Source: Minisyncoccota bacterium (GTDB lineage: Bacteria; Patescibacteriota; Minisyncoccia; Phycocordibacterales; UBA9973). Taken from it: 64,000 nt of DNA. A program made the position numbers and the translations under genes. The notes below the pieces were generated by a model. It was not told the DNA's origin, did no database searches, and saw nothing but the letters and a program-made list of their open reading frames with translations. Below, one piece after another: positions 3,236 to 57,059 of this stretch (positions are counted from its first letter, which is position 1; the number at the start of each line of letters is the position of its first letter). The stretch spans positions 87,806-151,805 of the forward strand of contig JBAZYS010000002.1 in NCBI GenBank assembly GCA_041659205.1, given 5' to 3'.

Positions 3236-3724
3236 TTAAACAGAGCCAGTGTATTTAATTACTACTCGGCGGTCACGACCCATGCCAATAGATTCGGTTT
3301 TGAGGTCATTTGCTTCAGATAAAAATTCATGCACAATCCTACGTTCAAAAGCTGACATTGGGTCAACTTCTATATTTGATTTAAAATATCTTGCTCGCTC
3401 TGACATCATATGGGCAACCGCTCGAACACTTTCCACATGTTTCTTTTGAAAACCATTTATATCAATAATGATACCTAAGCCTGAATGATCTTTTTCCCCT
3501 ATCCCTGGGATAGGGGAAGATTTTGACTCAATAATTCTATGAACAAGGTGGCTTAAAGCTTGCAATCCCTCTCCCTCTCTTGAAATAAAGAAATGCGGTT
3601 CACTTACTTCCACTGAAACCCAAATATTTTTAGGACCGTCTTCTACAACAGAAATTCCATTTAACTTTACAGTTGTTTTTTCAATCAACTCTTTTATTAA
3701 ATTTTGAATTTCTTCTTGCTTCAT
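3236..3724 (-). CDS. jag: Jag/KhpB RNA-binding protein (KH + R3H domains)
   Basis: R3H motif FERRIVHEFL. Conserved position next to yidC in the rpmH-rnpA-yidD-yidC-jag cluster. Confidence 0.8.
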   Translation of the reverse strand: MKQEEIQNLIKELIEKTTVKLNGISVVEDGPKNIWVSVEVSEPHFFISREGEGLQALSHLVHRIIESKSSPIPGIGEKDHSGLGIIIDINGFQKKHVESVRAVAHMMSERARYFKSNIEVDPMSAFERRIVHEFLSEANDLKTESIGMGRDRRVVIKYTGSV

Positions 3725-3730
3725 ATTTTT

Positions 3731-4459
3731 TTACTTAATCACTATCTTAAAATTCTTTTCTCTTTTAACATAAATCTGTTGCCCAACCATAAATAAATTA
3801 CTGGTGATCCAATAAAGAGCAACTGCACCTGAAATACTATAAGCAATAAAAGCTATAACAAATGGAAAAATATACTTCATCTGCATACTCATACTCTTAG
3901 AAAAACTGTCTGCAAAAGAAGAAGTGGCTCCCGGGGTAGGGGTAGGAGCTTTCGGCATAAAGTGCGCTTGGAGATATTGAGATACTCCAGCTAATATTGC
4001 TAGAACTAGACTTTTTTGAGTGATATCAAGGAAGCCCAAGAAAAGCATATTCACATGGGCAGGAACGTGAACAAAAGAATAAAGTAACCCCCCATCGAAC
4101 TTTATGCCCTTTAAAAAGACGTAATATAAAGCAAAAATGACAGGAATTTGAATTAAGACGAGCAAGCACCCAGAAAATGGATTAGTATTGTGTTTTTTAT
4201 ATAGCTCAAAAGTGAGACGAGCTTGTTCTTCTTTAGAAGCGCCACTTGTTTTGATTTTATTAATCTCTGGGGTTAAAATATTCATTTCCGCCTGACTTTC
4301 TATGGATTTCTGAGATAATGGGAAAAGAATAATTTTAACAAGGATAGTGAGCACAATAACAGCAAGACCAACGTCTCCACCAGGGATAATAGATACTAAA
4401 AAGGCTAAAGCATTGAGAAGTGGCTGATATAAAATCGTATTCCAAATATTTGAAAGCAT
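3731..4459 (-). CDS. yidC: membrane protein insertase YidC (short form)
   Basis: Multi-TM protein with YidC/Oxa1 core similarity. Conserved position downstream of rnpA/yidD. Confidence 0.8.
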   Translation of the reverse strand: MLSNIWNTILYQPLLNALAFLVSIIPGGDVGLAVIVLTILVKIILFPLSQKSIESQAEMNILTPEINKIKTSGASKEEQARLTFELYKKHNTNPFSGCLLVLIQIPVIFALYYVFLKGIKFDGGLLYSFVHVPAHVNMLFLGFLDITQKSLVLAILAGVSQYLQAHFMPKAPTPTPGATSSFADSFSKSMSMQMKYIFPFVIAFIAYSISGAVALYWITSNLFMVGQQIYVKREKNFKIVIK

Positions 4460-5372: not shown

Positions 5373-6713
5373 ATGAATACGAAACAGTTGTGGAAAAATT
5401 GTTTGATGAAAATTGAGTCTGGAATGTCTAAAGCAAACTTCAGTACTTGGTTTAAAAATACATCAATTATTAAAGAGGAAACTGGAATTATTTACATCGG
5501 AGTTCCAAATGAGTTTGTCCGCGATTGGTTAATGAATAAATATCACAAACTCATCACTAAAACTATTGCTGAAGCTTATGAGAGTATGCGAGCAGTAGAA
5601 TACACAATTACTAAAATAGAAACTCCGGCCCAAGAAGTAATAACGATCACGGAAAGTGCAGAAAAAGAGCTTCCTTTGAGAGATTTATATATAAACCCAG
5701 GAGACAATCTAAATCCCCGTTACCGTTTCAACTCTTTTATTGTTGGCGCCTTCAACGAGCTCGCTTATGCAGCGTCTCAAGCGATAATAGACTCACCTGG
5801 AACTAAATATAATCCATTTTTTATTTACGGAGGGACTGGTCTTGGAAAAACTCACTTAATCCAAGCAGTAGGTAACTCAATAAAAGACAAGTATCCTGAC
5901 AAAAAAGTGCATTATATGACCTTAGAAAAATTTGCAACTGATTTTATCAACTCCCTTCAGAGCAATAAAGCAAACTCTTTCAAAGAAAAGTATCGTAAAT
6001 ATGATTTATTGATCATCGATGATATCCAATTCATAGGAAAAATGGAAAAAATTCAAGAAGAACTTTTCCATACATTTAATACTTTCTATGAAAACAATAA
6101 ACAAATCATTTTTTCTTCTGATAAACATCCAAACTATATTCCTGAGCTCGCGGACCGTTTAAAGTCACGTTTTGCGGCAGGAATGATAGTAGATATCTCT
6201 GAACCAGAATATGAATCTCGTCTCGCAATCATAAAAGTAAAACTGCGAGAATTAAATATTGTATTAGACGAAGATTTAATAGAATACGTTGCAGGTGCAA
6301 TGCAGGGAAATATCCGAGAGTTGGAGGGGAGCTTAAACCTTATAGTTTGCCAATATCGCTTGAAAAATAAGGCTCCAACCCTTGTAGAAGTAAAAAATTT
6401 ACTTAAAAACAACATGAAGCCAAAGAAAAACATGGCAATAAAAGATGTTGTAAAAATAGTAGCTGAATATTATAAACTAGAAGAAGCTTCTGTTTATGAA
6501 AAAACTAGAAAAAAAGAAATTGTGAAAGCTAGACAAGTTATTATGTATCTACTACGAGAAGATTTTAGTGTTTCTTACCCTTTAATTGGTCAGAAATTGG
6601 GAGGAAAAGACCATACCACAGTCATGCATTCATGTGTAAAAATAAAAGCAGACTTAAAAAATGATTCTCAGTTAATCCAAGAGTTAGAGCAAATAAGAAT
6701 TATGTTTAAATAG
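5373..6713 (+). CDS. dnaA: chromosomal replication initiator DnaA
   Basis: AAA+ Walker A GGTGLGKTHL. C-terminal DNA-binding domain. Conserved rpmH-dnaA-dnaN synteny. Confidence 0.95.
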   Translation: MNTKQLWKNCLMKIESGMSKANFSTWFKNTSIIKEETGIIYIGVPNEFVRDWLMNKYHKLITKTIAEAYESMRAVEYTITKIETPAQEVITITESAEKELPLRDLYINPGDNLNPRYRFNSFIVGAFNELAYAASQAIIDSPGTKYNPFFIYGGTGLGKTHLIQAVGNSIKDKYPDKKVHYMTLEKFATDFINSLQSNKANSFKEKYRKYDLLIIDDIQFIGKMEKIQEELFHTFNTFYENNKQIIFSSDKHPNYIPELADRLKSRFAAGMIVDISEPEYESRLAIIKVKLRELNIVLDEDLIEYVAGAMQGNIRELEGSLNLIVCQYRLKNKAPTLVEVKNLLKNNMKPKKNMAIKDVVKIVAEYYKLEEASVYEKTRKKEIVKARQVIMYLLREDFSVSYPLIGQKLGGKDHTTVMHSCVKIKADLKNDSQLIQELEQIRIMFK

Positions 6714-12374: not shown

Positions 12375-12470
12375 AAATATAGTCTTTTAAAAAGCATTGC
12401 GACCAGCTACCGAGCGAGTATAGCAAATTTTCAGCAGAAAATTATGTGCGGTTTTTAAAAGACTATATTT
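12375..12470 (+). repeat. GC-rich miniature repeat family 2, copy 1, enclosed by a 19-bp perfect inverted repeat
   Basis: Core 12394..12451 (GCATTGCGACCAGCTACCGAGCGAGTATAGCAAATTTTCAGCAGAAAATTATGTGCGG) shares AATTTTTCAGCAGAAAAATAT and a GC-rich hairpin with the copies at 54148 and 62386. Flanks AAATATAGTCTTTTAAAAA and TTTTTAAAAGACTATATTT are perfect inverted repeats; the right one overlaps the ruvC stop. Confidence 0.7.
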
Positions 12471-12958
12471 TTATAGTTTTGCCCTTTTAAATGTGCAAAA
12501 GCTGTAATAGCGATGGCAATAGCATCCAATTCATCGTCTGACTTTTTAGAATTATCTATATCCACTAATATTTTTACCATTTTTATTATTTGTTCTTTAT
12601 TTGCTTTTCCATAACCCGTGGTAGCTATTTTTATTTGAGGGGGGGAGGCTTCAAATATTTTTAATCCAGCATTTGTGGCTTCATAAATTACTACCCCGCG
12701 TGCTTCGGCGACGTGCATGACTGTTTTATGATTAGTAGTTAAAAATAAAGTTTCTATCGAAAGAACATCAGGTTTGTATTTTTTTATTATTTTTTTTACT
12801 TCTTCACCGATTAAAAGTAATCGTTCATTAAATTCTAATTTGGCAGAAGTTTTAAAGCATTCTGAAAAAATTACAGCTTCTTTTTTATCACCTTGTTTTT
12901 TCTCTAAGACCGCGACACCGAGGCGTTCATATCCTGGATCTATTCCTAAAATTATCAT
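12455..12958 (-). CDS. ruvC: crossover junction endodeoxyribonuclease RuvC
   Basis: MIILGIDPGYERLGVAVLE with RNase-H-like fold catalytic Asp/Glu. 167 aa. Confidence 0.9.
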   Translation of the reverse strand: MIILGIDPGYERLGVAVLEKKQGDKKEAVIFSECFKTSAKLEFNERLLLIGEEVKKIIKKYKPDVLSIETLFLTTNHKTVMHVAEARGVVIYEATNAGLKIFEASPPQIKIATTGYGKANKEQIIKMVKILVDIDNSKKSDDELDAIAIAITAFAHLKGQNYKNIVF

Positions 12959-13125
12959 AACTAAAGTTTAACATAATATGTGGATATTTTAATTGACTTT
13001 AGAAATATTAGTGATATATTAAACGTAATTTCCTCTCTGGATGTTTTTCTTTGAGAGGGTGTTCCTTTCAAAGATTCTGGAGATCCACCACAACCAGGGC
13101 CTAAAAGCCCTAAGCAGGAGGATTC

Positions 13126-13275
13126 ATGAAGAAATTCACCGCGCTCATCCCGATCAGCTCGTTCCTGACCCCGGTCATGACGCTGACCTTCGAGCTCCAG
13201 CCCAACGCCCACGGCCAAAGCGGCGCCGTCGGCACGATCTCCATCGGCCACCCCGTCACCCGTAACGGCACTTGA
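13126..13275 (+). CDS. small ORF (49 aa) inside a GC-rich mini-island, preceded by a perfect Shine-Dalgarno
   Basis: AGGAGG at 13116..13121, 4 nt before the ATG. Product MKKFTALIPISSFLTPVMTLTFELQPNAHGQSGAVGTISIGHPVTRNGT. It is antisense to the ruvB-yebC-ruvC transcription direction. Confidence 0.3.
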   Translation: MKKFTALIPISSFLTPVMTLTFELQPNAHGQSGAVGTISIGHPVTRNGT

Positions 13276-13440
13276 ATTAGGGAAAGCATCACGTTGGTGC
13301 TTTCCCAAAAACTCAAACGCCTCCGAAGGAACGGGTTGTTGAAGAAAGGGGAGGCCTCTCACGAGGCCTCCCCCGACTATCAAAAGTCATTAAGATTTTT
13401 TATTTTAAAAAAACACTGGTGGCTTTTTTAATTTGTCTTT

Positions 13441-13977
13441 TTATTCAGCATTAGTATAAACATCCTGCACATCATCATTCTCCTCAATGTCTTCTATGAG
13501 TTTATCTAAAAGTTCTAAGTCTTCATCAGAAAGAGGAATGGAACTATTTGGAACCCAAATAAGTCCTTCTGGGCTTTTTTGTTTAGTAAATGCCCAAGAC
13601 GCAGAACCGATAGCTCCTAAAGTAAAACCATTTTTTGTAAGGATATGTTTTATATCTTGAGCTGTTCTGTTTTTACTATCCGTTAGAGTTTCAATAATAA
13701 TTCCTGCTCCACCCGGGCCATGTGCTTCATAAGTAATGGCATCCATATGGGCAGATGGTTCGCTAGCTTTTTTAACAGCTCTTTCTATAACATCCCCAGA
13801 CATATTTACCTTTTTTGCTTTTTCTATTGCAGCACGAAGTCCAGGAGATTCCTTGCCACCCGAGAGTTTCGCTTCGACAGAAATATAGCGTACAAGCTTA
13901 GAAAAGATTTTGCTTTTCTTCGAGTCAGTAATTGCTTTCTTGTGTTTTATTTGTGCCCATTTATTATGTCCTGACAT
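13441..13977 (-). CDS. yebC: YebC/PmpR-family DNA-binding regulator (short form)
   Basis: N-terminus MSGHNKWAQIKHKKA is the family hallmark. Located between ruvB and ruvC as in many bacteria. Confidence 0.85.
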   Translation of the reverse strand: MSGHNKWAQIKHKKAITDSKKSKIFSKLVRYISVEAKLSGGKESPGLRAAIEKAKKVNMSGDVIERAVKKASEPSAHMDAITYEAHGPGGAGIIIETLTDSKNRTAQDIKHILTKNGFTLGAIGSASWAFTKQKSPEGLIWVPNSSIPLSDEDLELLDKLIEDIEENDDVQDVYTNAE

Positions 13978-41294: not shown

Positions 41295-44200
41295 TTATTG
41301 TAATGTAGTAGTCGTAGTTTTTTTGCCAGATGGTTGATCAATGACAGTCGTAGTTTTTTTACGGAAAGATTGATCATAGGTGTACTTAGTTAAATATACA
41401 AGTATAAGTACAAGAAGGAGAAGAAGGAGCCATCCGAATAAGTTTGTAGGGAAGAAACCAGCTCCGAAGACATTTGCGCCAAGGAAGTTAAGATTTGTTC
41501 CATCATTCCAAACTTGGGCTGAGACATTTGCACTTACTGATTGAGGCTGACCAGAAGGATCAATATAACTCAAAGTTGCAGGGAAGTTCAAATTTGTTCC
41601 AGCTTTTATGTTATCACGTACTCGTACTCTTACAGTGACTACTCCTTTACCATTTGCTCGAAGAGTTCCGAGGTTGAAGTATAGGGTATTACCAGAGATT
41701 GAGGGATTGCTTGGGTTTGAGAATAGATAATCTACTTCAAGAGGAAGATTCATTTGAAGAGTAAGGTTCGTGATTGAAGCATTCCCGATGTTTTGATAAC
41801 TCACTGTGTAATTTATTTCATCACCCGGTTTTGGCATGGTGTTATCAATCGTAGGAACGATTGGTTGGTTGCGGTCAACAGAAGAGGTGATTAAGACGAG
41901 GGAAGATGGGATAATAGGAGTTCTATTTGTTTGACCACCGACAGTTATTGTCTCAGTATCACTTGCAGAACCGAAAGCATTACTACAAGTTATTTCGTAA
42001 GTCTTACTTGAAGTTAAACTTCCAGTATAGAAGGAGCCTGGACCAATACTTTTTACTCCGGCCCAGCCGACAGATCCGCCTGACGCATTACATGAGGTTG
42101 CATTTGTGGTAATCCAGCGAACAGTTGCAGAACCATTGTAAGCTAGATTTGTTTGATCTGAATAAACTACTACAGTTGGCTGATTACTTATGATTTGTTG
42201 ATTATCTACATTAACAGTTGTAGTAGCATTTGCTTGCTGGCCACTACTGTTTGTACAAGTAATACCGAAGTTTGTTGCATTGGTTAAGTTACCTGTGTAG
42301 AAACTTCCAGAAGTACTTCTGTTTCCAGACCATCCGTTAGTACCATTATTGGCGGAACATGATGTCGCATTTGTAGAATTCCAAATTATTAATGAAGTTC
42401 CATTGTAAGGGACAGAAACTGGATTTGCATACATGGTAACAGTTGGGTATTGAGTTTGGTTGTTTACATATACTGAAGTAGAAGCATTTGCTTGCTGACC
42501 ACTACTATTTGTACAAACGATATCAAAGTTTGTTGTATAGGTTAAGTTTCCAGTATAGAAACTACCGGAAGTACTTTTACTTCCTGCCCATCCGTTTAAT
42601 CCATTTGTACCAGTACAGTAACTTGCGTTTGTAGAATTCCAAGTAACTAAAGAAGTTCCATTATAAGAAATAGAAGCTGGACTTGCGTACATGGTAACAG
42701 TTGGGTTTTGATTTTGATTATTTACATAAACAGTGGCATTGGCACTTGCTGATTGACCAGTGTTGTTTACGCAATTAATAACATATGTAGTTGTACCTTG
42801 TGGTACTACCACTCCTGATCCACTAATTGAGTTACTTCCTGTCCAATAAGCATTACATGAGGTTGCATTTTGGGAAGTCCAAGTAAGAGTAGAGTTACTA
42901 CCTTGCTGAATGCTTGCTGGGTTGGCAGTTAGTTGTACTGTTGGAGCTTGAGTTTGGTTTACGTAAACAGTTGCATTAGCACTTCCTTGCTGGCCAGCAC
43001 TGTTTACACAGTTAATAACATAAGTAGTTGTACCTTGTGGTACTACCACTCCTGATCCAGTAGTGTTTGTATTTGTAGTCCAGTAAGCATTACATGAGGT
43101 TGCATTTTGGGAAGTCCAAGTAAGAGTAGAGTTACTACCTTGCTGAATATTTGTTGGATTAGCAGTTAGTTGAACTGTTGGAGCTTGAGGATTGTAATTG
43201 AAACTAGCATTAACCGTACAATTTGAAGTAATTGCACCTGTGGTAAATGTGTTTCCATTTAAATATCCATTACAACCAGAAACATTATTTATTGAGTATC
43301 CTTGATTTGCAGTTATGTAAAAGGTTGCAGTATTTCCAGAATTAATTTGCTGAGAAGTAGGAGCGATTGATCCACCTGTTCCAGCATTTGTGGAGACGGT
43401 GAAAGTAGTAGGGGCGTTTGGCGCACAGATTGAACCGTTCCAAGAAGAACCATTTGCACATGACGAAGTAGCTGATTTTGTATCTAGAACCGTAGATCCA
43501 TTTCTAAGATTATATATTGTATATGGGTATCCAACATATACTAAAAGAGGGTATGTGTTATTTGCAGCAGTAGAAAGAGTCGCACCTGTGTTTCCATCTA
43601 TCAACATTGGATTTGTAGTATTTGCTGTCGTCCAAGTAGCGCCGGTAACAGTACAAGTGCTTGCACCGGAAGCGATGATACAGCTTGAAGGGGAAATAGT
43701 TAAATTTCCAGTTGCTGGGTTAGGAGGATTTTGTACAAAACTAGCATATACAGTACAAGCAGAATATATCGCGCCAGTATTGTATGTAGTAGCAGTAGTA
43801 ATGTTGTTCAACTGACTACCATTACAACCATAAACTGACCCAGTGTATCCAGAATTTGGAGTTACTGTGAAGTTTGTGGTGTTTCCTGAAACGACTTGCT
43901 GATTTGGGGGAGTAATGTTTCCACCTACGCCTGATCCTGTGGAGGTAACGGTGTAGGTAGAAGGGGCGTTAGGTGTAAAACTAGCATTTACAGTACAGAC
44001 AGCATTTATTGCACCAGTAGTGTATGTCGTAGGAGCTGTAATATTATTTAATGCAATACCATTACATCCAGAAACTGAACCAGTGTATCCGTAGTTTGGA
44101 GTTACTGTGAAGCTTGTAGTACTTCCTGCATTAACGTTCTGAGTTCCTAGGGGAGAGATAGTTCCGTTGTTGCCTGCGTTTGAAGTGACTGCGTAGGTAG

Positions 44201-44567
44201 TAGCCTGACACGTAGGAGTCATAATGCTTCTGATATTTAATGGATTGGTTCCGTAAGCATTTACAATTACCATTCTGAAATAGTAAACAGTGTTTTCGGA
44301 TAGTCCAGTAACAAGCTGTTCAACATGAGATAGAGAATTAAAATGTTGTACGGCTGTATGTATTCCTAATCCTTGTTCGACATTATTATAAGTAGTGTCG
44401 TATTCGAAATGGACATCGAATGGCGGAGTGCCGCTTGTGATGTCACCAGTGAAATAAGCACTATTACAAGTGAGTGCAGATGCGGGAGTCGCAAATGCAA
44501 AAGACCCGAAGAGTGTTACCACACTCAACATTAATCCGACCGACAATAATTTTATTTTGTTATTCAT
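41295..44567 (-). CDS. giant cell-surface protein (1090 aa): signal peptide, tandem Ig/PKD-like Thr/Ser/Asn-rich domains, C-terminal TM anchor
   Basis: Signal peptide. At least two ~95-aa near-identical repeats (APTVQLTANP..IQQGSNSTLTWTSQNATSCNAYWT...TTYVINCVN) and 2-3 repeats of PTVTMYA.P.S..YNGTSL..WNSTNA. C-terminal LLLLLLVLILVYL. Near-identical DNA repeats are present. Confidence 0.7.
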   Translation of the reverse strand: MNNKIKLLSVGLMLSVVTLFGSFAFATPASALTCNSAYFTGDITSGTPPFDVHFEYDTTYNNVEQGLGIHTAVQHFNSLSHVEQLVTGLSENTVYYFRMVIVNAYGTNPLNIRSIMTPTCQATTYAVTSNAGNNGTISPLGTQNVNAGSTTSFTVTPNYGYTGSVSGCNGIALNNITAPTTYTTGAINAVCTVNASFTPNAPSTYTVTSTGSGVGGNITPPNQQVVSGNTTNFTVTPNSGYTGSVYGCNGSQLNNITTATTYNTGAIYSACTVYASFVQNPPNPATGNLTISPSSCIIASGASTCTVTGATWTTANTTNPMLIDGNTGATLSTAANNTYPLLVYVGYPYTIYNLRNGSTVLDTKSATSSCANGSSWNGSICAPNAPTTFTVSTNAGTGGSIAPTSQQINSGNTATFYITANQGYSINNVSGCNGYLNGNTFTTGAITSNCTVNASFNYNPQAPTVQLTANPTNIQQGSNSTLTWTSQNATSCNAYWTTNTNTTGSGVVVPQGTTTYVINCVNSAGQQGSANATVYVNQTQAPTVQLTANPASIQQGSNSTLTWTSQNATSCNAYWTGSNSISGSGVVVPQGTTTYVINCVNNTGQSASANATVYVNNQNQNPTVTMYASPASISYNGTSLVTWNSTNASYCTGTNGLNGWAGSKSTSGSFYTGNLTYTTNFDIVCTNSSGQQANASTSVYVNNQTQYPTVTMYANPVSVPYNGTSLIIWNSTNATSCSANNGTNGWSGNRSTSGSFYTGNLTNATNFGITCTNSSGQQANATTTVNVDNQQIISNQPTVVVYSDQTNLAYNGSATVRWITTNATSCNASGGSVGWAGVKSIGPGSFYTGSLTSSKTYEITCSNAFGSASDTETITVGGQTNRTPIIPSSLVLITSSVDRNQPIVPTIDNTMPKPGDEINYTVSYQNIGNASITNLTLQMNLPLEVDYLFSNPSNPSISGNTLYFNLGTLRANGKGVVTVRVRVRDNIKAGTNLNFPATLSYIDPSGQPQSVSANVSAQVWNDGTNLNFLGANVFGAGFFPTNLFGWLLLLLLVLILVYLTKYTYDQSFRKKTTTVIDQPSGKKTTTTTLQ

Positions 44568-44736
44568 AATTTTTTATACCTCTCTCGAGGTTTATTAATA
44601 ATTAAAAGTAAAAACGACTTCTTACTTTCCGGAATCATGAATCTAAGATATTAATCTATATTCATAACTTTGGAAAGTAGAGGAGGTAAGCGTAAAAAAA
44701 ATACGCGAACCTCCTCCGATTGTGTGGACACGATGT

Positions 44737-45471
44737 TCAGTGCCCGTTGCCGGTGGTTCCTCCACCGATTTGGCCGGAAGGAGCACTGTCTCCTCCACCG
44801 AATGCACGTCCCCCGATGTACGCTGCCGCGAGATGCACGAAGAACGTCTTCCAGGGATGATCCCTCCAGCAGTGGGTGTACCAGTTGCCCTTCGGGGGGA
44901 CAACGGTATTTTCCTTCGGCGGGGGGTTCTTCTTGACGTAAGCCGCGAACGCGGCGTCTAGATCTTCTTTGGTCAGCTGTTGTCTCCCAACGAGGACGTC
45001 CAACTTGCTGTCCATGGAGTCTAGCTTGGCTAATACCAGCTGCATTTCGTTGCAGCTCTTTTCGTACGCCTCCGGGTAGGAGACGATTTTTCCCTTCGGT
45101 TGCCACCCGGTGGTGACAACTTCGTTGCCGCAGACGGCAATCCAGAGGGCGACTTTGGTTTCCTCGTCCACCATGACGAGAACACCAGCGGGAAGAATGC
45201 CCGACGATTCAGTGTTGTTTTCACCCCTGAGGGTGATGATCGGGGAGTCGTGTTCCAAGACGATCCCGATTTCTCTCCGCCAGTTGGGCTTGCGGGGAGA
45301 CAGGTCAATCGGCTTGCCCGCATTTTGCGGGTGCGTATTGAGCCTGAAGTACCTCGCCCCTGACTGTACCTGCGTCGCATGCGTCGGTGTCTGCGCGTTG
45401 GCGATTGAGGCACCAGCGACGAGAAACATTGCCACGGTAATCGTGGCCACTCCTGACAGAATACTTTTCAT
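44737..45471 (-). CDS. GC-rich (~58% GC) putative horizontally acquired secreted protein (244 aa) of unknown function
   Basis: ATG start. Signal peptide MKSILSGVATITVAMFLVAGASIANA. Gly-rich C-terminus. Codon usage (GGC, CCG, AAG) is foreign to the surrounding ~33% GC DNA. A hairpin terminator follows at about 44688..44716. Confidence 0.6.
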   Translation of the reverse strand: MKSILSGVATITVAMFLVAGASIANAQTPTHATQVQSGARYFRLNTHPQNAGKPIDLSPRKPNWRREIGIVLEHDSPIITLRGENNTESSGILPAGVLVMVDEETKVALWIAVCGNEVVTTGWQPKGKIVSYPEAYEKSCNEMQLVLAKLDSMDSKLDVLVGRQQLTKEDLDAAFAAYVKKNPPPKENTVVPPKGNWYTHCWRDHPWKTFFVHLAAAYIGGRAFGGGDSAPSGQIGGGTTGNGH

Positions 45472-45703
45472 GACTGCTCCTATGTGTGATAAAATGAACG
45501 GATTTTTTGGGGAAACCCCCGTTTATGGGGAGCGTCCTCATAAACTTATTTCACCTAGCATTGTATCATACCGGTGTGAAAATGTCAAATACATTATAAA
45601 GGGAGTGAGGTGCTAACTTTTTGAAGTTATTTTTATATTTTTTATTTAATTTGAATTTTCAGAGAAAAACTGTTACTCTAAAATAGTAAAAGAAACATAT
45701 GAG

Positions 45704-45775
45704 GCCCTCATAGTTTAATGGATAGAATGCGAGCTTGCGGAGTTTGCGATGTAGGTTCGATTCCTACTGAGGGCA
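45704..45775 (+). tRNA. tRNA-Arg-like (anticodon loop TTGCGGA, anticodon GCG), close paralogue of tRNA-Arg(TCT) at 52505
   Basis: 72-nt cloverleaf. Acceptor GCCCTCA/TGAGGGC. T-arm GTAGGTTCGATTCCTAC. Anticodon stem has 3 Watson-Crick + 2 G-U pairs, so it may be divergent or a pseudogene. Confidence 0.55.
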
Positions 45776-45811
45776 CTAGCACGAAAGAAGCCAACTGCTT
45801 GGCTTTACGTA

Positions 45812-45900
45812 GGAAGCGAAAAGCTTTTACCTATTTTTTTATAAAAAATGTAAAAGGTATACTGTTCTCGTAGAGAAAGATTTCCTACTGAGGGCACAAA
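45812..45900 (+). repeat. conserved ~85-bp module downstream of tRNA-Arg, ending in a direct repeat of the tRNA 3' end (CCTACTGAGGGCAC)
   Basis: About 85% identical to 52636..52725. Contains AAAAGGTATACTGTTC (-10-like TATACT). The final 14 nt exactly repeat the 3' end of this locus's tRNA. Confidence 0.6.
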
Positions 45901-56333: not shown

Positions 56334-56362
56334 TTGACAATAATGCTTGCTAGGTGTATAAT
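56334..56362 (+). promoter_or_regulatory. perfect sigma-70 consensus promoter TTGACA-17 bp-TATAAT upstream of the GC-rich ORF
   Basis: TTGACA at 56334..56339, 17-nt spacer, TATAAT at 56357..56362. A 7-bp GC hairpin TGACGGC-ACTC-GCCGTCA abuts the ATG at 56418. Confidence 0.7.
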
Positions 56363-56417
56363 ACAGAAGGTATAAATACTAAGTTCCTCAAATCTTTGAC
56401 GGCACTCGCCGTCATCA

Positions 56418-56993
56418 ATGTGGCCAAAAGGCCCAAAAGGAGACCTCGTGTCCGAAAATACTAAGCCGGAAGAACTCGAAGTGATCGAGGAGATCGAAGA
56501 TCTTCTCGTTATCGTGGACAGAAGCAAGGTCAAGCTTCTTCCAGCGACAAAGGGTGTTGAGAAGTTTCACACCCTCGTTGAAGGCGGGCAGATTTGCCTC
56601 AACCCGTCGCAAGTGTGGCCGGAGGAATTTCCGGTCTCGGTGGAGTTCCTGGAAGAGAGCGAAGGGAAAGAAACTCCCGAAGTCCTGATTATCGGCCACC
56701 GGATTGCCGCCGGGTCGGGGACCCTTCCGGAAGTTTTCTCCTTCCAAAAGGAGGTATTCGAGAAGGGCACTCTGGTGGACGAACAGATCATCATGTTCTG
56801 CCGGAAGTTTCCGGATGAGCTGAGGTCGAAGAACCTCTTCCCCATGAAGGAGGGGGAAGAAGAGTTCGTCGTCGTTCTGTATCGGAATGAACAAAACCTG
56901 GTCGTCAAAGAGAAGTATTCACTGAAGGCCCCAAGGTTGTTCACGCCGCAGGATTGCCTGTTGGTTTGGATTTCCTACAAGATCACGACCTAG
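56418..56993 (+). CDS. GC-rich (~52% GC) putative horizontally acquired acidic protein (191 aa), function unknown
   Basis: Long ATG ORF in a compositionally foreign ~650-bp island. Own consensus promoter upstream and two hairpins downstream (ACGACCTAG-TCTC-CTAGGTCGT overlapping the stop, then a terminator). Confidence 0.55.
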   Translation: MWPKGPKGDLVSENTKPEELEVIEEIEDLLVIVDRSKVKLLPATKGVEKFHTLVEGGQICLNPSQVWPEEFPVSVEFLEESEGKETPEVLIIGHRIAAGSGTLPEVFSFQKEVFEKGTLVDEQIIMFCRKFPDELRSKNLFPMKEGEEEFVVVLYRNEQNLVVKEKYSLKAPRLFTPQDCLLVWISYKITT

Positions 56994-57030
56994 TCTCTAG
57001 GTCGTTTCATCAAAAACCGTTTTCTCAAGG

Positions 57031-57059
57031 AAAAAACCACCCTGAGGAGGCGGTTTTTT
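57031..57059 (+). terminator. rho-independent terminator (A6-CCACC-CTGAGGAG-GCGG-T6)
   Basis: Stem-loop flanked by A6 and T6. Confidence 0.6.

Follow-up and report, generated by a model that had tools for sequence, protein, structure and literature searches.

Coding RNAs can be heavily structured, as exemplified by the genomes of ssRNA phages. Abundant envelope proteins have stable mRNAs with stabilising stem-loops at their 5' ends. Rickettsia palindromic elements are palindromic mobile repeats, some of which are inserted in frame in genes. As for the giant surface proteins of CPR bacteria, they are thought to mediate attachment to the host. Coding palindromes that are tolerated by selection are also known (PMC6649704), and template switching is documented to give rise to stems, and to keep them, in a single step (PMC8794818).

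Deviant GC content next to a tRNA gene is routinely taken as a mark of foreign DNA. This is how a first-pass annotation interpreted the locus described here, which lies in a 64,000-nucleotide stretch of the genome of a Minisyncoccota bacterium (hereafter 'the window'). The rule appears to fail at this locus, as the deviation is inherited and maintained. The GC-rich block resembles a genomic island without behaving as one.

A GC-rich block that coincides with one coding sequence

The whole window has a GC content of 36.0%, with a mean of 0.360 and an sd of 0.054 in 300-nt windows. Between 44700 and 45499, the values rise to 0.535-0.605 in 200-nt windows, with both flanks at 0.30-0.44, and the peak of 0.59 lies approximately 4 sd above the 300-nt window mean. 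The sharp block of about 790 bp reported initially was recovered (54-60% GC across 44700-45480). The described jump from ~33% to ~58% is real as a rise, but its background is nearer 36%. Further GC-rich patches are present in the window at 12960-13440 and 56350-57050. The genes of the locus are as follows.

44737..45471, minus strand: CDS of a 244-aa protein, which is the GC-rich block itself (57% GC, GC3 0.70)
41295..44567, minus strand: giant surface protein gene of 1090 aa, product secreted or anchored, with DUF11/CLIPPER and InlB-B-repeat-like domains
45704..45776, plus strand: tRNA-Arg, anticodon GCG, divergent from the small gene

The 244-aa ORF exists exactly as first annotated, including its quoted N- and C-termini, and the giant gene and the tRNA gene flank it as stated. 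Its GC1/GC2/GC3 values are 0.56/0.46/0.70, compared with 0.46/0.35/0.29 for the 32 ORFs in the window that are 200 aa or longer; a GC3 of 0.70 is typical of a genome of ~58-60% GC. The codon comparison with other genes that had been proposed does single out the gene (GC3 0.70 vs 0.29±0.08): codon usage is inverted at all amino acids, and G-ending codons and GC-rich amino acids are likewise enriched. The excess is limited to the CDS. The promoter, the leader and the downstream spacer are as AT-rich as the rest of the genome, the GC boundaries match the start codon and a 3' hairpin, and the giant gene has an ordinary low GC content (39%, GC3 0.26).

The GC3>GC1>GC2 pattern falls in the frame of the 44737..45471 ORF, which supports the earlier view that the other ORFs called in the region are alternative-frame artefacts. 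Given a dN/dS of 0.2 relative to its orthologue in the related locus L001, a family of 58 proteins and a confidently predicted beta domain, the 44737..45471 ORF on the minus strand is a real protein gene. Both the window and L001 contain long open antisense ORFs. We rejected an overlapping or antisense gene, as the ORFs of the other frames are broken up and differ in extent from one orthologue to the next, and third positions have reached saturation. High expression, with translational selection for C-ending codons, was also discarded as the sole cause of the composition, since the ribosomal protein and EF-Ts genes of related loci reach a GC3 of only 0.26-0.41, and since G-ending codons and GC-rich amino acids are increased as well. 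A link between the tRNA-Arg(GCG) and the codon usage of the gene was ruled out, because the latter contains only one CGC and one CGT codon.

A conserved two-gene module in low-GC relatives

Low-GC relatives carry a GC-rich orthologue at the same site, which contradicts the proposal that the gene arrived recently, possibly from a host, and occupies a 'classic island position'. The orthologue also forms a GC-rich block at nine further distinct loci, with 50-60% GC against 30-47% in the flanks and a GC3 of 0.56-0.73 on backgrounds of 30 to 47% GC. Its GC content is 58% in L001, 53% in L003, 59% in L004, 55% in L007, 60% in L010, 55% in L011, 54% in L016 and 50% in L020; in L002 it is 42% on a background of 30%. 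The sequences of L004/5/6, L007/8 and L020/21 are identical and come from independent assemblies and separate samples.

The homologue search led to low-GC, CPR-like contigs and not to a high-GC donor lineage. All nearest homologues are found there, including the strongest matches examined (down to E = 9e-15, P0024), and members from higher-GC bacteria are distant (E of at least 6e-10; L018 52%, L022 63% and L023 61% GC). No closer homologue was found in high-GC organisms, phages or plasmids. The first-pass annotation had itself named such an outcome, with homologues confined to low-GC relatives whose local GC is just as high, as speaking against its interpretation. Wider scans for related loci with a 3-sequence alignment found none. 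The 54-sequence family alignment is too diverse for a pattern search, and a word-index protein search with it gave four matches.

In all 11 loci with enough sequence, a co-oriented gene for a giant secreted protein directly follows the small gene. The two genes form a conserved CPR surface module, namely a small signal-peptide protein gene followed by a giant gene on the same strand; the module is defined in the present analysis and corresponds to no named family. Synteny thus argues against an island, with the giant gene conserved downstream and tRNA-Arg(GCG) upstream in the subclade of the window. The orthologous tRNA gene adjoins the small gene in L001 (as a fragment), L002, L003 and L004. 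Only in L004 does a large serine recombinase gene adjoin the tRNA. In the window, the last 16 nt of the tRNA gene (45761-45776) recur at 45882-45897, the only repeat of this kind; the two copies flank 105 bp that lie beyond the tRNA as seen from the small gene.

The AT-rich promoter, the 5' UTR and the downstream operator-like repeat can be aligned across the subclade of the window. In order of transcription, the elements around the small gene are the following.

45560..45588, minus strand: sigma-70-type promoter TTGACA-17 nt-TACAAT with a TG extension, near consensus (11/12 matches in a scan)
45503..45532, minus strand: 5' UTR stem-loop(s) CCCC-AUAAAC-GGGGG-UUU-CCCC, then an A-run, from the sequence and the leader alignment
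45477..45481, minus strand: ribosome-binding site AGGAG, 5 nt ahead of the ATG, with GGAG aligned in orthologous upstream regions
44680..44716, minus strand: GC-rich hairpin GAGGAGGU...ACCUCCUC right after the stop codon, with 15-nt arms that are 87% complementary
44623..44679, minus strand: AT-rich inverted repeat, consensus CACTCTTTAAAGTTATGAA / TTCATAATTCCAAAGAGTG, between the small and the giant gene, with invariant alignment columns

In the promoter, TTGACAT and TGATACAAT are nearly invariant among the window, L001, L003, L004 and L002. A GGGG...CCCC hairpin is present in five of five aligned orthologous leaders, and the 5' UTR stem-loop presumably stabilises or regulates the message. The hairpin after the stop codon is terminator-like, without a clean U-tract, and has counterparts in L001, L003 and L004. 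The AT-rich inverted repeat was found independently in the window, in L001 (924-965), in L004 (9504-9560) and in L007 (6700-6741); it might be an operator, or else form a leader hairpin for the giant gene.

In the comparison with L001, the small gene and its giant neighbour have diverged to a similar extent, with 54% and 50% amino acid identity and third-position identities of 0.40 and 0.44, respectively. The dS value is 2.3 for the small gene and 1.5 for its neighbour, and the dN/dS of the former is 0.46/2.29 = 0.2; synonymous sites are saturated. Synonymous W/S differences between orthologues are balanced in direction, which fits equilibrium and parallel decay alike. In a midpoint-rooted NJ tree, the GC-rich members are on deep branches and the AT-rich members form one derived clade. 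Core-domain identity between GC-rich members drops to 27-45%.

The encoded protein and its family

The 244-aa protein consists of a signal-like N-terminus, a beta domain of ~90 residues, long helices, a C-terminal hydrophobic helix and a Gly-rich tail. It had been described as secreted. The signal-like N-terminal helix and the Gly-rich tail are indeed present; free secretion did not hold up, as the hydrophobic helix that precedes the Gly-rich tail makes membrane anchoring more likely. The AF2 model has a pLDDT of 78.6 overall and above 90 over residues about 60-130, a core predicted to be a small all-beta domain. No significant profile or structural match to the protein was obtained in Pfam or the PDB. 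The weak best matches of the predicted core include SH3 and SH3b domains (lysostaphin, ALE-1), reminiscent of SH3b-like or small beta-barrel domains that bind cell walls. The family comprises 58 representative proteins or clusters and has neither a Pfam entry nor a solved relative. It is thus an uncharacterised protein family with a tight link to giant surface proteins.

Excess folding of the coding sequence

Folding energies were expressed as z scores of the CDS relative to synonymous-codon shuffles. The window gene has z scores of -4.35 and -5.3, and an independent tool gave -4.41 relative to dinucleotide shuffles. The values are -4.7 and -6.0 for L001, -19 for L016, -12 and -15 for L007, -12.5 for L020, -10 for L010 and -7.7 for L012. 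The family ranges from -2.2 to -19, compared with a median of -0.75 and a minimum of -4.05 for 28 control genes (Mann-Whitney p = 1e-6). Within the family, the window gene is one of the milder cases, and its z scores exceed those of the most extreme controls only slightly (-3.1 inside the window, -4.05 outside it). It has four local hairpins of at least 8 bp that account for 10% of its nucleotides, and its relatives have 9-17 stems each; in L007 and L016, perfect or near-perfect local stems make up 40-48% of the CDS. The longest Watson-Crick run has 11 pairs in the window gene, compared with 14-15 in L007, L010 and L016, and the longest predicted stem with mismatches allowed is ~19 bp, in L007.

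Excess structure does not depend on GC-richness, since AT-rich members of the family have it as well (z of -2.8 to -7.7). No excess was seen in L022, a distant relative whose genome is high in GC (z of +0.7). No such folding trait was detected in other genes of the same genomes, ribosomal protein genes included; it is confined to one gene and ends at its start and stop codons. In Rfam 15, only tRNAs reach the gathering score, and the hits at E<=1 in 44550-45700 are chance miRNA models. Sense and antisense z scores are alike for the closest relatives of the window gene, so the strand assignment rests mainly on a pooled G·U bias. Within strong stems, G·U pairs number 45 and A·C mismatches 24, compared with 579 and 516 in shuffles, a modest pooled difference (Fisher p = 0.047) that points to sense RNA and not DNA.

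Most hairpins are lineage-specific, and only one stem is clearly conserved in position in the family.

45156..45187, minus strand: hairpin within the CDS, over the motif AGVLVMVDEETK (GGUG.UUCUCGUC-AUGGUG-GACGAGGA.AACC), a position-conserved stem

Fifteen MFE pairs are common to at least four of 13 sequences, compared with 1.9±2.4 in synonymous shuffles, and 11 of these 15 belong to the 45156..45187 stem. In that stem, 67.6% of cells are paired, as opposed to 59.3±1.9 in shuffles (0/500) and 29-46% in slid controls. Its covariation is 0.246 vs 0.149 (1/500 shuffles). The stem has compensatory changes, with pairs 10-27 and 12-25 alternating between CG, GC and UA. In the comparison of L016 with L020, a synonymous double change was observed. 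The L010/L019, L004/5/6, L007/8 and L020/21 sequences are identical within each set and hence have no differences that could show compensatory substitution.

Origin and maintenance of the GC-rich gene

The sharp GC jump, the GC3 of 0.70, the adjacent tRNA-Arg and the nearby 16-nt repeat are all features that a recent acquisition from a high-GC donor, for instance an actinobacterial host, would have left upon insertion beside a tRNA gene. Such an event is nevertheless very improbable. Same-site orthologues in at least five related genomes share the tRNA, the promoter, the downstream repeat and the giant gene, and the divergence of the small gene equals that of its low-GC neighbour. Furthermore, close homologues are all in low-GC CPR-like contigs with no phage or plasmid match, the direct repeat fails to bracket the gene and the block has no integrase. 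The compositional jump alone would also fit a high-GC fragment mis-joined into a low-GC contig by chimeric assembly or contamination. We practically dismiss this idea: an AT-rich promoter and leader followed by the GC-rich CDS, an AT-rich spacer and the giant gene were seen in many assemblies made independently in different projects, the GC boundaries fall at the start codon and the 3' hairpin, and several loci were recovered identically from separate samples (L004/5/6, L007/8, L020/21), which excludes an assembly artefact. An ancient transfer of a GC-rich gene into a CPR ancestor, with unfinished amelioration and no force maintaining its GC content, would agree with the presence of distant members in higher-GC bacteria (L018, L022, L023), with the deep branches of the GC-rich members and with an AT-rich clade that resembles an ameliorated offshoot. 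However, with identities of 27-45% and saturated synonymous sites, standard amelioration reasoning predicts that GC3 should have fallen to 0.2-0.3 everywhere, as that of the giant gene did, whereas it is still 0.56-0.73 in nine further loci. As this scenario also leaves both the hairpin excess and the lasting GC-richness unexplained, we consider it improbable.

Another alternative is a largely neutral process at the DNA level. Template switching during replication might make and homogenise quasi-palindromes, possibly with GC-biased repair between the arms, and hairpins and GC content would then be self-perpetuating mutational by-products. Perfect Watson-Crick palindromes with good scores on either strand are frequent among the stems, most stems are lineage-specific rather than conserved in position, one-step creation and maintenance of stems by template switching is on record (PMC8794818), and coding palindromes tolerated by selection provide a precedent (PMC6649704). 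Still, the preference for G·U over A·C in stems relative to shuffles is unexpected of a strand-symmetric process, the trait is limited to one gene with its ends at the start and stop codons, and it has been kept through very deep divergence while neighbouring genes show none. With no known reason for template switching to target this CDS, we find such a process rather unlikely. Alternatively, the composition might be set by a second, overlapping function, be it that of a gene in another frame, of a structured ncRNA or antisense RNA, or of a DNA element with an effect on the downstream giant gene. The strong structure signal on both strands, the long open antisense ORFs in the window and L001, the invariable place of the gene directly ahead of the giant gene, and the conserved operator-like inverted repeat that separates the two are compatible with this proposal. 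It is unlikely all the same, as no Rfam family matches even at E<=1, the third-position identity of 0.40 between orthologues reveals no constrained second frame, the antisense ORFs are fragmented, not co-extensive and expected in GC-rich DNA, and most stems shift position, unlike those of a defined ncRNA fold.

The explanation that we favour, with about even confidence that it is correct, is that of a native gene whose GC-richness is upheld by selection for extensive base pairing in its mRNA. The block would be a vertically inherited gene of a Paceibacterota-type (CPR) lineage, the first in a two-gene surface module. Its GC-richness would be actively maintained as a property of the coding sequence alone, given that the promoter, the leader and the downstream spacer are AT-rich like the genome. 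Selection on pairing in the sense mRNA appears to be the most likely force; G/C-ending codons, and in part GC-rich amino acids, would be chosen such that many stable local hairpins form. The structure presumably serves stability or expression control. Together with the near-consensus promoter, the strong ribosome-binding site, the 5' stem-loop and the 3' hairpin, it might yield a long-lived, nuclease-resistant message, or else it might throttle translation and read-through into the giant gene. Several observations weigh against this explanation, namely the mild excess in the window gene, the mostly lineage-specific hairpins, the similar sense and antisense z scores, the excess structure of AT-rich members, the absence of the trait from other genes of the same genomes and the ordinary folding of L022.

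It is tempting to go further and envisage a previously undescribed class of bacterial genes, in which the entire CDS doubles as a chain of RNA hairpins. Selection on pairing would hold the gene 20 GC points above its genome over long periods, and cause covariation between amino acids encoded by the two arms of a stem (in the conserved motif, L...E against A...R). This proposal is possible but doubtful. The structured message might then be an exceptionally long-lived mRNA in ultra-small cells that are poor in ribosomes, or a translation-gated switch for the downstream giant adhesin gene. To our knowledge, no chromosomal bacterial case of whole-CDS structuring with a 20-point GC shift has been described, and limited literature searches for this combination returned no match. 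If the RNA structure is a maintained trait, the family provides a natural case of selection on mRNA folding acting against genome-wide mutational bias, and even on protein sequence. It would also bear on how the expression of giant surface proteins is controlled in ultra-small, ribosome-poor cells.

Comparison with known systems

Like tRNA-linked genomic islands, the locus has a short block of sharply deviating GC content and codon usage beside a tRNA gene, and a short direct repeat derived from the 3' end of the tRNA is close by. Unlike them, it consists of one gene without a Pfam domain, and no integrase or mobility gene is found in the block. The tRNA-end repeat encloses 105 bp away from the gene rather than bracketing it as attL and attR. 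Moreover, the gene, the tRNA, the promoter, the partner gene and the GC deviation itself are conserved in relatives, the site being occupied in L001-L004. As the deviation is inherited and maintained, automated predictions of horizontal gene transfer or host linkage in CPR genomes are liable to be misled by this gene family.

Coding palindromes (2019, PMC6649704) are similar in that inverted repeats lie in an intact, conserved ORF whose arms are both translated, with a compromise between protein and stem, and in that self-complementarity exceeds the level expected by chance from protein and codon usage, as it does in the present family. However, the stems of the mitochondrial cases reach 284 bp (PMC6649704), whereas those described here are 8-19 bp long. 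The present stems are bacterial and belong to one gene family, where GC content far exceeds that of the surrounding AT-rich genome, and the window gene has few of them. Rickettsia palindromic elements and REP-type repeats (REPs: PMC3733652) also place hairpin-forming palindromic sequences in or beside genes, but they are multi-copy families of shared sequence, while each stem is unique here. A mobile palindromic repeat was rejected, as a blastn search with the gene as query returned only chance 12-15-mers from the remainder of the 64-kb window. The structured coding RNAs of ssRNA phage genomes and stable envelope-protein mRNAs resemble this gene in having a CDS that is largely paired. The strong promoter and the hairpins in the 5' UTR and at the 3' end, all predicted here, would fit a long-lived and abundant message of that kind.

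A GC-rich gene and its product

GC content rises from 0.30-0.44 outside the block to 0.535-0.605 over 44700-45499 and drops again on either side (200-nt windows). Against a whole-window value of 36.0%, the block peaks at 0.59, about 4 sd above the mean (300-nt windows). This bears out the sharp jump reported in the first-pass annotation, and both neighbours that it named were found where it placed them:

44737..45471, minus strand: the one ATG-initiated ORF that matches the block (small gene, 244 aa)
41295..44567, minus strand: surface-protein gene (giant gene, 1090 aa)
45704-45776, plus strand: tRNA-Arg

The gene call was right, and the termini quoted for the product match. GC1/GC2/GC3 of the small gene are 0.56/0.46/0.70, compared with 0.46/0.35/0.29 (GC3 sd 0.08) in 32 window ORFs of at least 200 aa, and codons shift from A/T-ending to G/C-ending for every amino acid with synonymous codons. 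As GC3 exceeds GC1 and GC1 exceeds GC2 in this frame, the other ORFs of the block are usual by-products of GC-rich DNA, as had been proposed.

An identical protein, annotated as hypothetical, is already catalogued for a Candidatus Paceibacterota MAG; it has no match in Pfam. When a profile built from three sequences was run with HMMER against all 1.84 billion representatives, 58 proteins scored E<=1e-3, among which 25 reached E<=1e-10; the family is real but uncharacterised. AlphaFold (54-sequence alignment) gave a pLDDT of 78.6 overall, with the following predicted features:

N-terminal part: signal-like helix
Residues about 60-130: small all-beta domain (pLDDT >90)
Residues 133-161 and 168-181: long helices
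Residues 206-225: C-terminal hydrophobic helix
C-terminus: disordered Gly-rich tail

The signal-like helix and Gly-rich tail of the earlier description are thus retained in the model. Because of the predicted hydrophobic helix and the clear C-terminal transmembrane segments of relatives, however, the product is best read as a surface protein with a C-terminal anchor rather than as a secreted protein. Judging only from conserved adjacency, it probably serves the giant surface protein as a membrane-anchored partner.

Conservation of the gene and its flanks

We retrieved the DNA surrounding homologues (loci L001-L023) and compared the GC content of each gene with that of its flanks. At the raised loci, GC jumps at the start codon and falls past the stop. 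The L001 orthologue has 50-54% amino acid identity and a GC3 of 0.72.

Table. GC content of family genes and flanks, and folding z-scores of the coding sequences (negative, more structured than shuffled controls). Slashed handles denote identical sequences.
Locus; gene GC; flank GC; z
Window; -; -; -4.35 and -5.3 (two runs), -4.41 against dinucleotide shuffles
L001; 58%; ~35%; -4.7 and -6.0
L002 (intermediate); 42%; 30%; -4.4
L003; 53%; 34%; -3.3 and -4.2
L004/5/6; 59%; 34-40%; -4.0 and -3.7 (L004)
L007/8; 55%; 33-38%; -11.9 and -15.4 (L007)
L010/L019; 60%; 41-48%; -9.6 and -10.7 (L010)
L011; 55%; 40-45%; -2.5 and -2.2
L016; 54%; 30-37%; -19.1
L020/21; 50%; 35%; -12.5 (L020)
L012 (AT-rich); 45%, only slightly raised; -; -7.7
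L009, L013, L014 (AT-rich); 33-38%, not raised; -; -5.7, -2.75, -5.9

When the core domain was used for an NJ tree with midpoint rooting, GC-rich members formed the deep branches, with core identities down to 27-45%, and AT-rich members a single derived clade. Only two of the loci, the window and L012, carry the name Paceibacterota; most contigs were classified by inference from their composition and gene content. The last ~11 residues of P0003, the homologue encoded at L002 (...IGRASCRERV), are an artefact, a translated Illumina adapter at the contig end (L002 10570-10603), and were trimmed before alignment.

A giant secreted-protein gene follows in the same orientation at 11/11 loci with enough sequence. 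At L001 it is an orthologue of that of the window, 50% identical over 223 aligned N-terminal residues. Within the subclade to which the window belongs, the small gene has an orthologous tRNA-Arg(GCG) a short distance upstream (window; L001, as a fragment; L002 9600-9672; L003 470-542; L004 8412-8486). The AT-rich non-coding flanks are alignable within this subclade and contain:

45588..45560, minus strand: near-consensus promoter TTGACA-17-(TG)TACAAT (scan and ortholog alignment)
Small-gene leader: hairpin GGGG...CCCC (flank alignment)
Upstream of the small gene: AGGAG site (read from sequence)
Past its stop codon: GC-rich hairpin (flank alignment)
44623-44679, between small and giant genes: AT-rich inverted repeat CACTCTTTAAAGTTATGAA / TTCATAATTCCAAAGAGTG, conserved in the window, L001, L003, L004 and L007

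A half-site resembling this repeat, CACTCCCTTTATAATGTAT, occurs at about 45589-45612, just upstream of the -35 box; together they may form a shared candidate operator through which one regulator acts on both genes. The whole small-gene cassette lies between the arms of a further, weaker inverted pair of 22 nt (44657-44678 / 45616-45637, 73% complementary).

The tRNA-Arg, orthologous in five loci, has anticodon GCG instead of the usual bacterial ACG. Its orientation relative to the small gene is the same in L001-L003 and opposite in the window and L004, and in L004 the gene for a large serine recombinase (492 aa) terminates within it; this points to a local site of inversion or recombination. 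Sixteen nucleotides of the tRNA 3' end are perfectly repeated in direct orientation (TTCCTACTGAGGGCAC; 45761-45776 and 45882-45897, 121 nt start to start), with 105 bp enclosed on the side of the tRNA that faces away from the small gene. The repeat resembles a scar left by integration and excision downstream of the tRNA.

The first-pass annotation had proposed horizontal acquisition, possibly from a host. This is unsupported and falls to the refuting outcome that the annotation itself had named, the GC-rich orthologues being found in low-GC contigs with shared flanks and synteny; family members from higher-GC genomes are distant relatives only. The block has no integrase, no paralogue or repeated piece of the gene was found elsewhere in the window, and phage and plasmid collections gave no match to it. 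A chimeric assembly is ruled out by identical sequences from separate samples. The small gene and its low-GC neighbour have diverged equally (third-position identity 0.40 vs 0.44, both with saturated dS). Given the orthology, aligned flanks, synteny and equal divergence, the GC-richness was inherited along with the gene and the regulatory flanks. The GC-rich genes persist against backgrounds from 30 to 47% GC, with the adjacent giant gene at genomic GC3. By ordinary amelioration reasoning, we infer that a passively decaying foreign composition could not last through such divergence across many lineages. The small gene is therefore very probably native rather than a recent import.

Folding of the coding sequence

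The GC-richness is confined to the coding sequence and conserved, and the family messages are unusually self-complementary. With synonymous-codon shuffling as control, which leaves protein and codon counts unchanged, 28 control genes of the window and related loci, including giant and ribosomal protein genes, had z-scores of +1.5 to -4.05 (median -0.75; family vs controls, Mann-Whitney p = 1e-6). In L007, L016 and L020 the coding sequence strings together local hairpins whose stems, 8-19 bp long and perfect or nearly so, cover 30-48% of nucleotides; these sequences nonetheless align full length with the family. In the window gene the effect is mild, with a moderate signal and four stems of at least 8 bp. 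GC-richness is not required for excess structure, since the AT-rich clade is over-structured as well.

Most stems are lineage-specific. When 13 members were aligned by codon, 15 MFE pairs recurred in at least four sequences, compared with 1.9±2.4 in shuffles; a single stem, which lies over the motif AGVLVxVDxxT (window 45156-45187), accounts for 11 of the 15. In this stem, 67.6% of cells are paired; shuffles reach 59.3±1.9 (0/500) and slid registers 29-46%. Covariation is 0.246 vs 0.149 (1/500), and central pairs change among CG, GC and UA. The codons involved alternate between CUC/GAG (Leu...Glu) and GCG/CGC (Ala...Arg), so that the amino acids of both arms appear to be constrained by pairing. 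Further stems are common to L016 and L020, with one doubly synonymous compensatory change (CUUCC/GGAAG vs CCUCC/GGAGG). The alignments show, at the sequence level, that at least one stem has been kept by compensatory change.

Two distant members gave opposite results. L023 3001-4326 (GCA_053497935.1) encodes 441 aa with a long Gly/Pro/Gln-rich tail; this gene is at 61% GC within a 51-54% GC genome and strongly over-structured (z -7.3), so that the trait may not be restricted to CPR-like genomes. The Thermoanaerobaculia member L022, from a high-GC genome, is neither GC-enriched nor over-structured (z +0.7).

Other GC-rich patches

A second island (12960-13440, 52-56% GC) lies between ruvC (12455..12958, minus strand) and a YebC-like gene (13441..13977, minus strand). 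It has no Rfam match and a z of -6.5 on the minus strand. Its 49-aa ORF (13126-13275, plus strand; GC3 0.90) has an AGGAGG site 4 nt upstream and a hydrophobic N-terminus, MKKFTALIPISSFLTPVMTLTF... Small secreted proteins encoded by GC-rich genes may form a class that recurs in this genome. A third patch (56350-57050, about 55% GC, z -2.3, no Rfam match) carries a candidate 191-aa ORF (56418-56993, plus strand) with no Pfam match, whose sole homologue, nearly identical, lies on a contig of 1.4 kb. Related low-GC contigs have isolated GC-rich stretches as well: in L004 a gene for a multi-pass membrane protein of 200 aa (5727-6329, minus strand; 55% GC, GC3 0.67, z -3.7) and in L010 a block at 61% GC whose ORF is doubtful (3309-3761). 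The L004 recombinase gene has a z of -4.05.

Possible causes and comparison with known systems

The most likely mechanism is selection of G/C-rich codons, which would stabilise stems amid an otherwise AT-rich transcriptome and so yield a long-lived, nuclease-resistant mRNA and/or structure-limited translation. Such a role fits the near-consensus promoter, AGGAG site, leader hairpin and 3' hairpin. The structured message might also gate the downstream giant gene, given the invariable position of the latter and the conserved operator-like repeat between the two. A neutral process at the DNA level could also contribute, namely template switching, which acts on quasi-palindromes (PMC8794818) and would homogenise them, perhaps together with GC-biased repair. 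Sense and antisense z-scores are similar. Despite this, the non-Watson-Crick positions of strong stems comprise 45 G·U and 24 A·C (579 and 516 in shuffles), which speaks more for pairing of the sense RNA than for a strand-symmetric DNA property. The allele pairs retrieved for the small gene are identical in sequence, and the distant relatives from high-GC genomes, L022 and L023, disagree. We consider the chances that RNA structure explains the GC-richness of the small gene to be about even.

The first-pass annotation saw a classic island position, yet the small gene resembles a tRNA-linked island in composition and position only; of the five defining features tested, it lacks four. A multi-copy palindromic element was rejected, as no piece is repeated elsewhere in the window. 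The gene belongs to no Rfam family, and literature searches turned up no account of genes of this kind, whether in CPR or in other bacteria, which is weak evidence of absence. What heads this surface-protein module is a conserved, GC-rich and unusually structured coding sequence. The nearest described phenomenon is the 'coding palindromes' of nematomorph mitochondrial genes (PMC6649704), which share the principle of stems within conserved coding sequence. In contrast to these, the stems of the small gene are much shorter, bacterial, limited to one gene family and accompanied by a 20-point GC excess.
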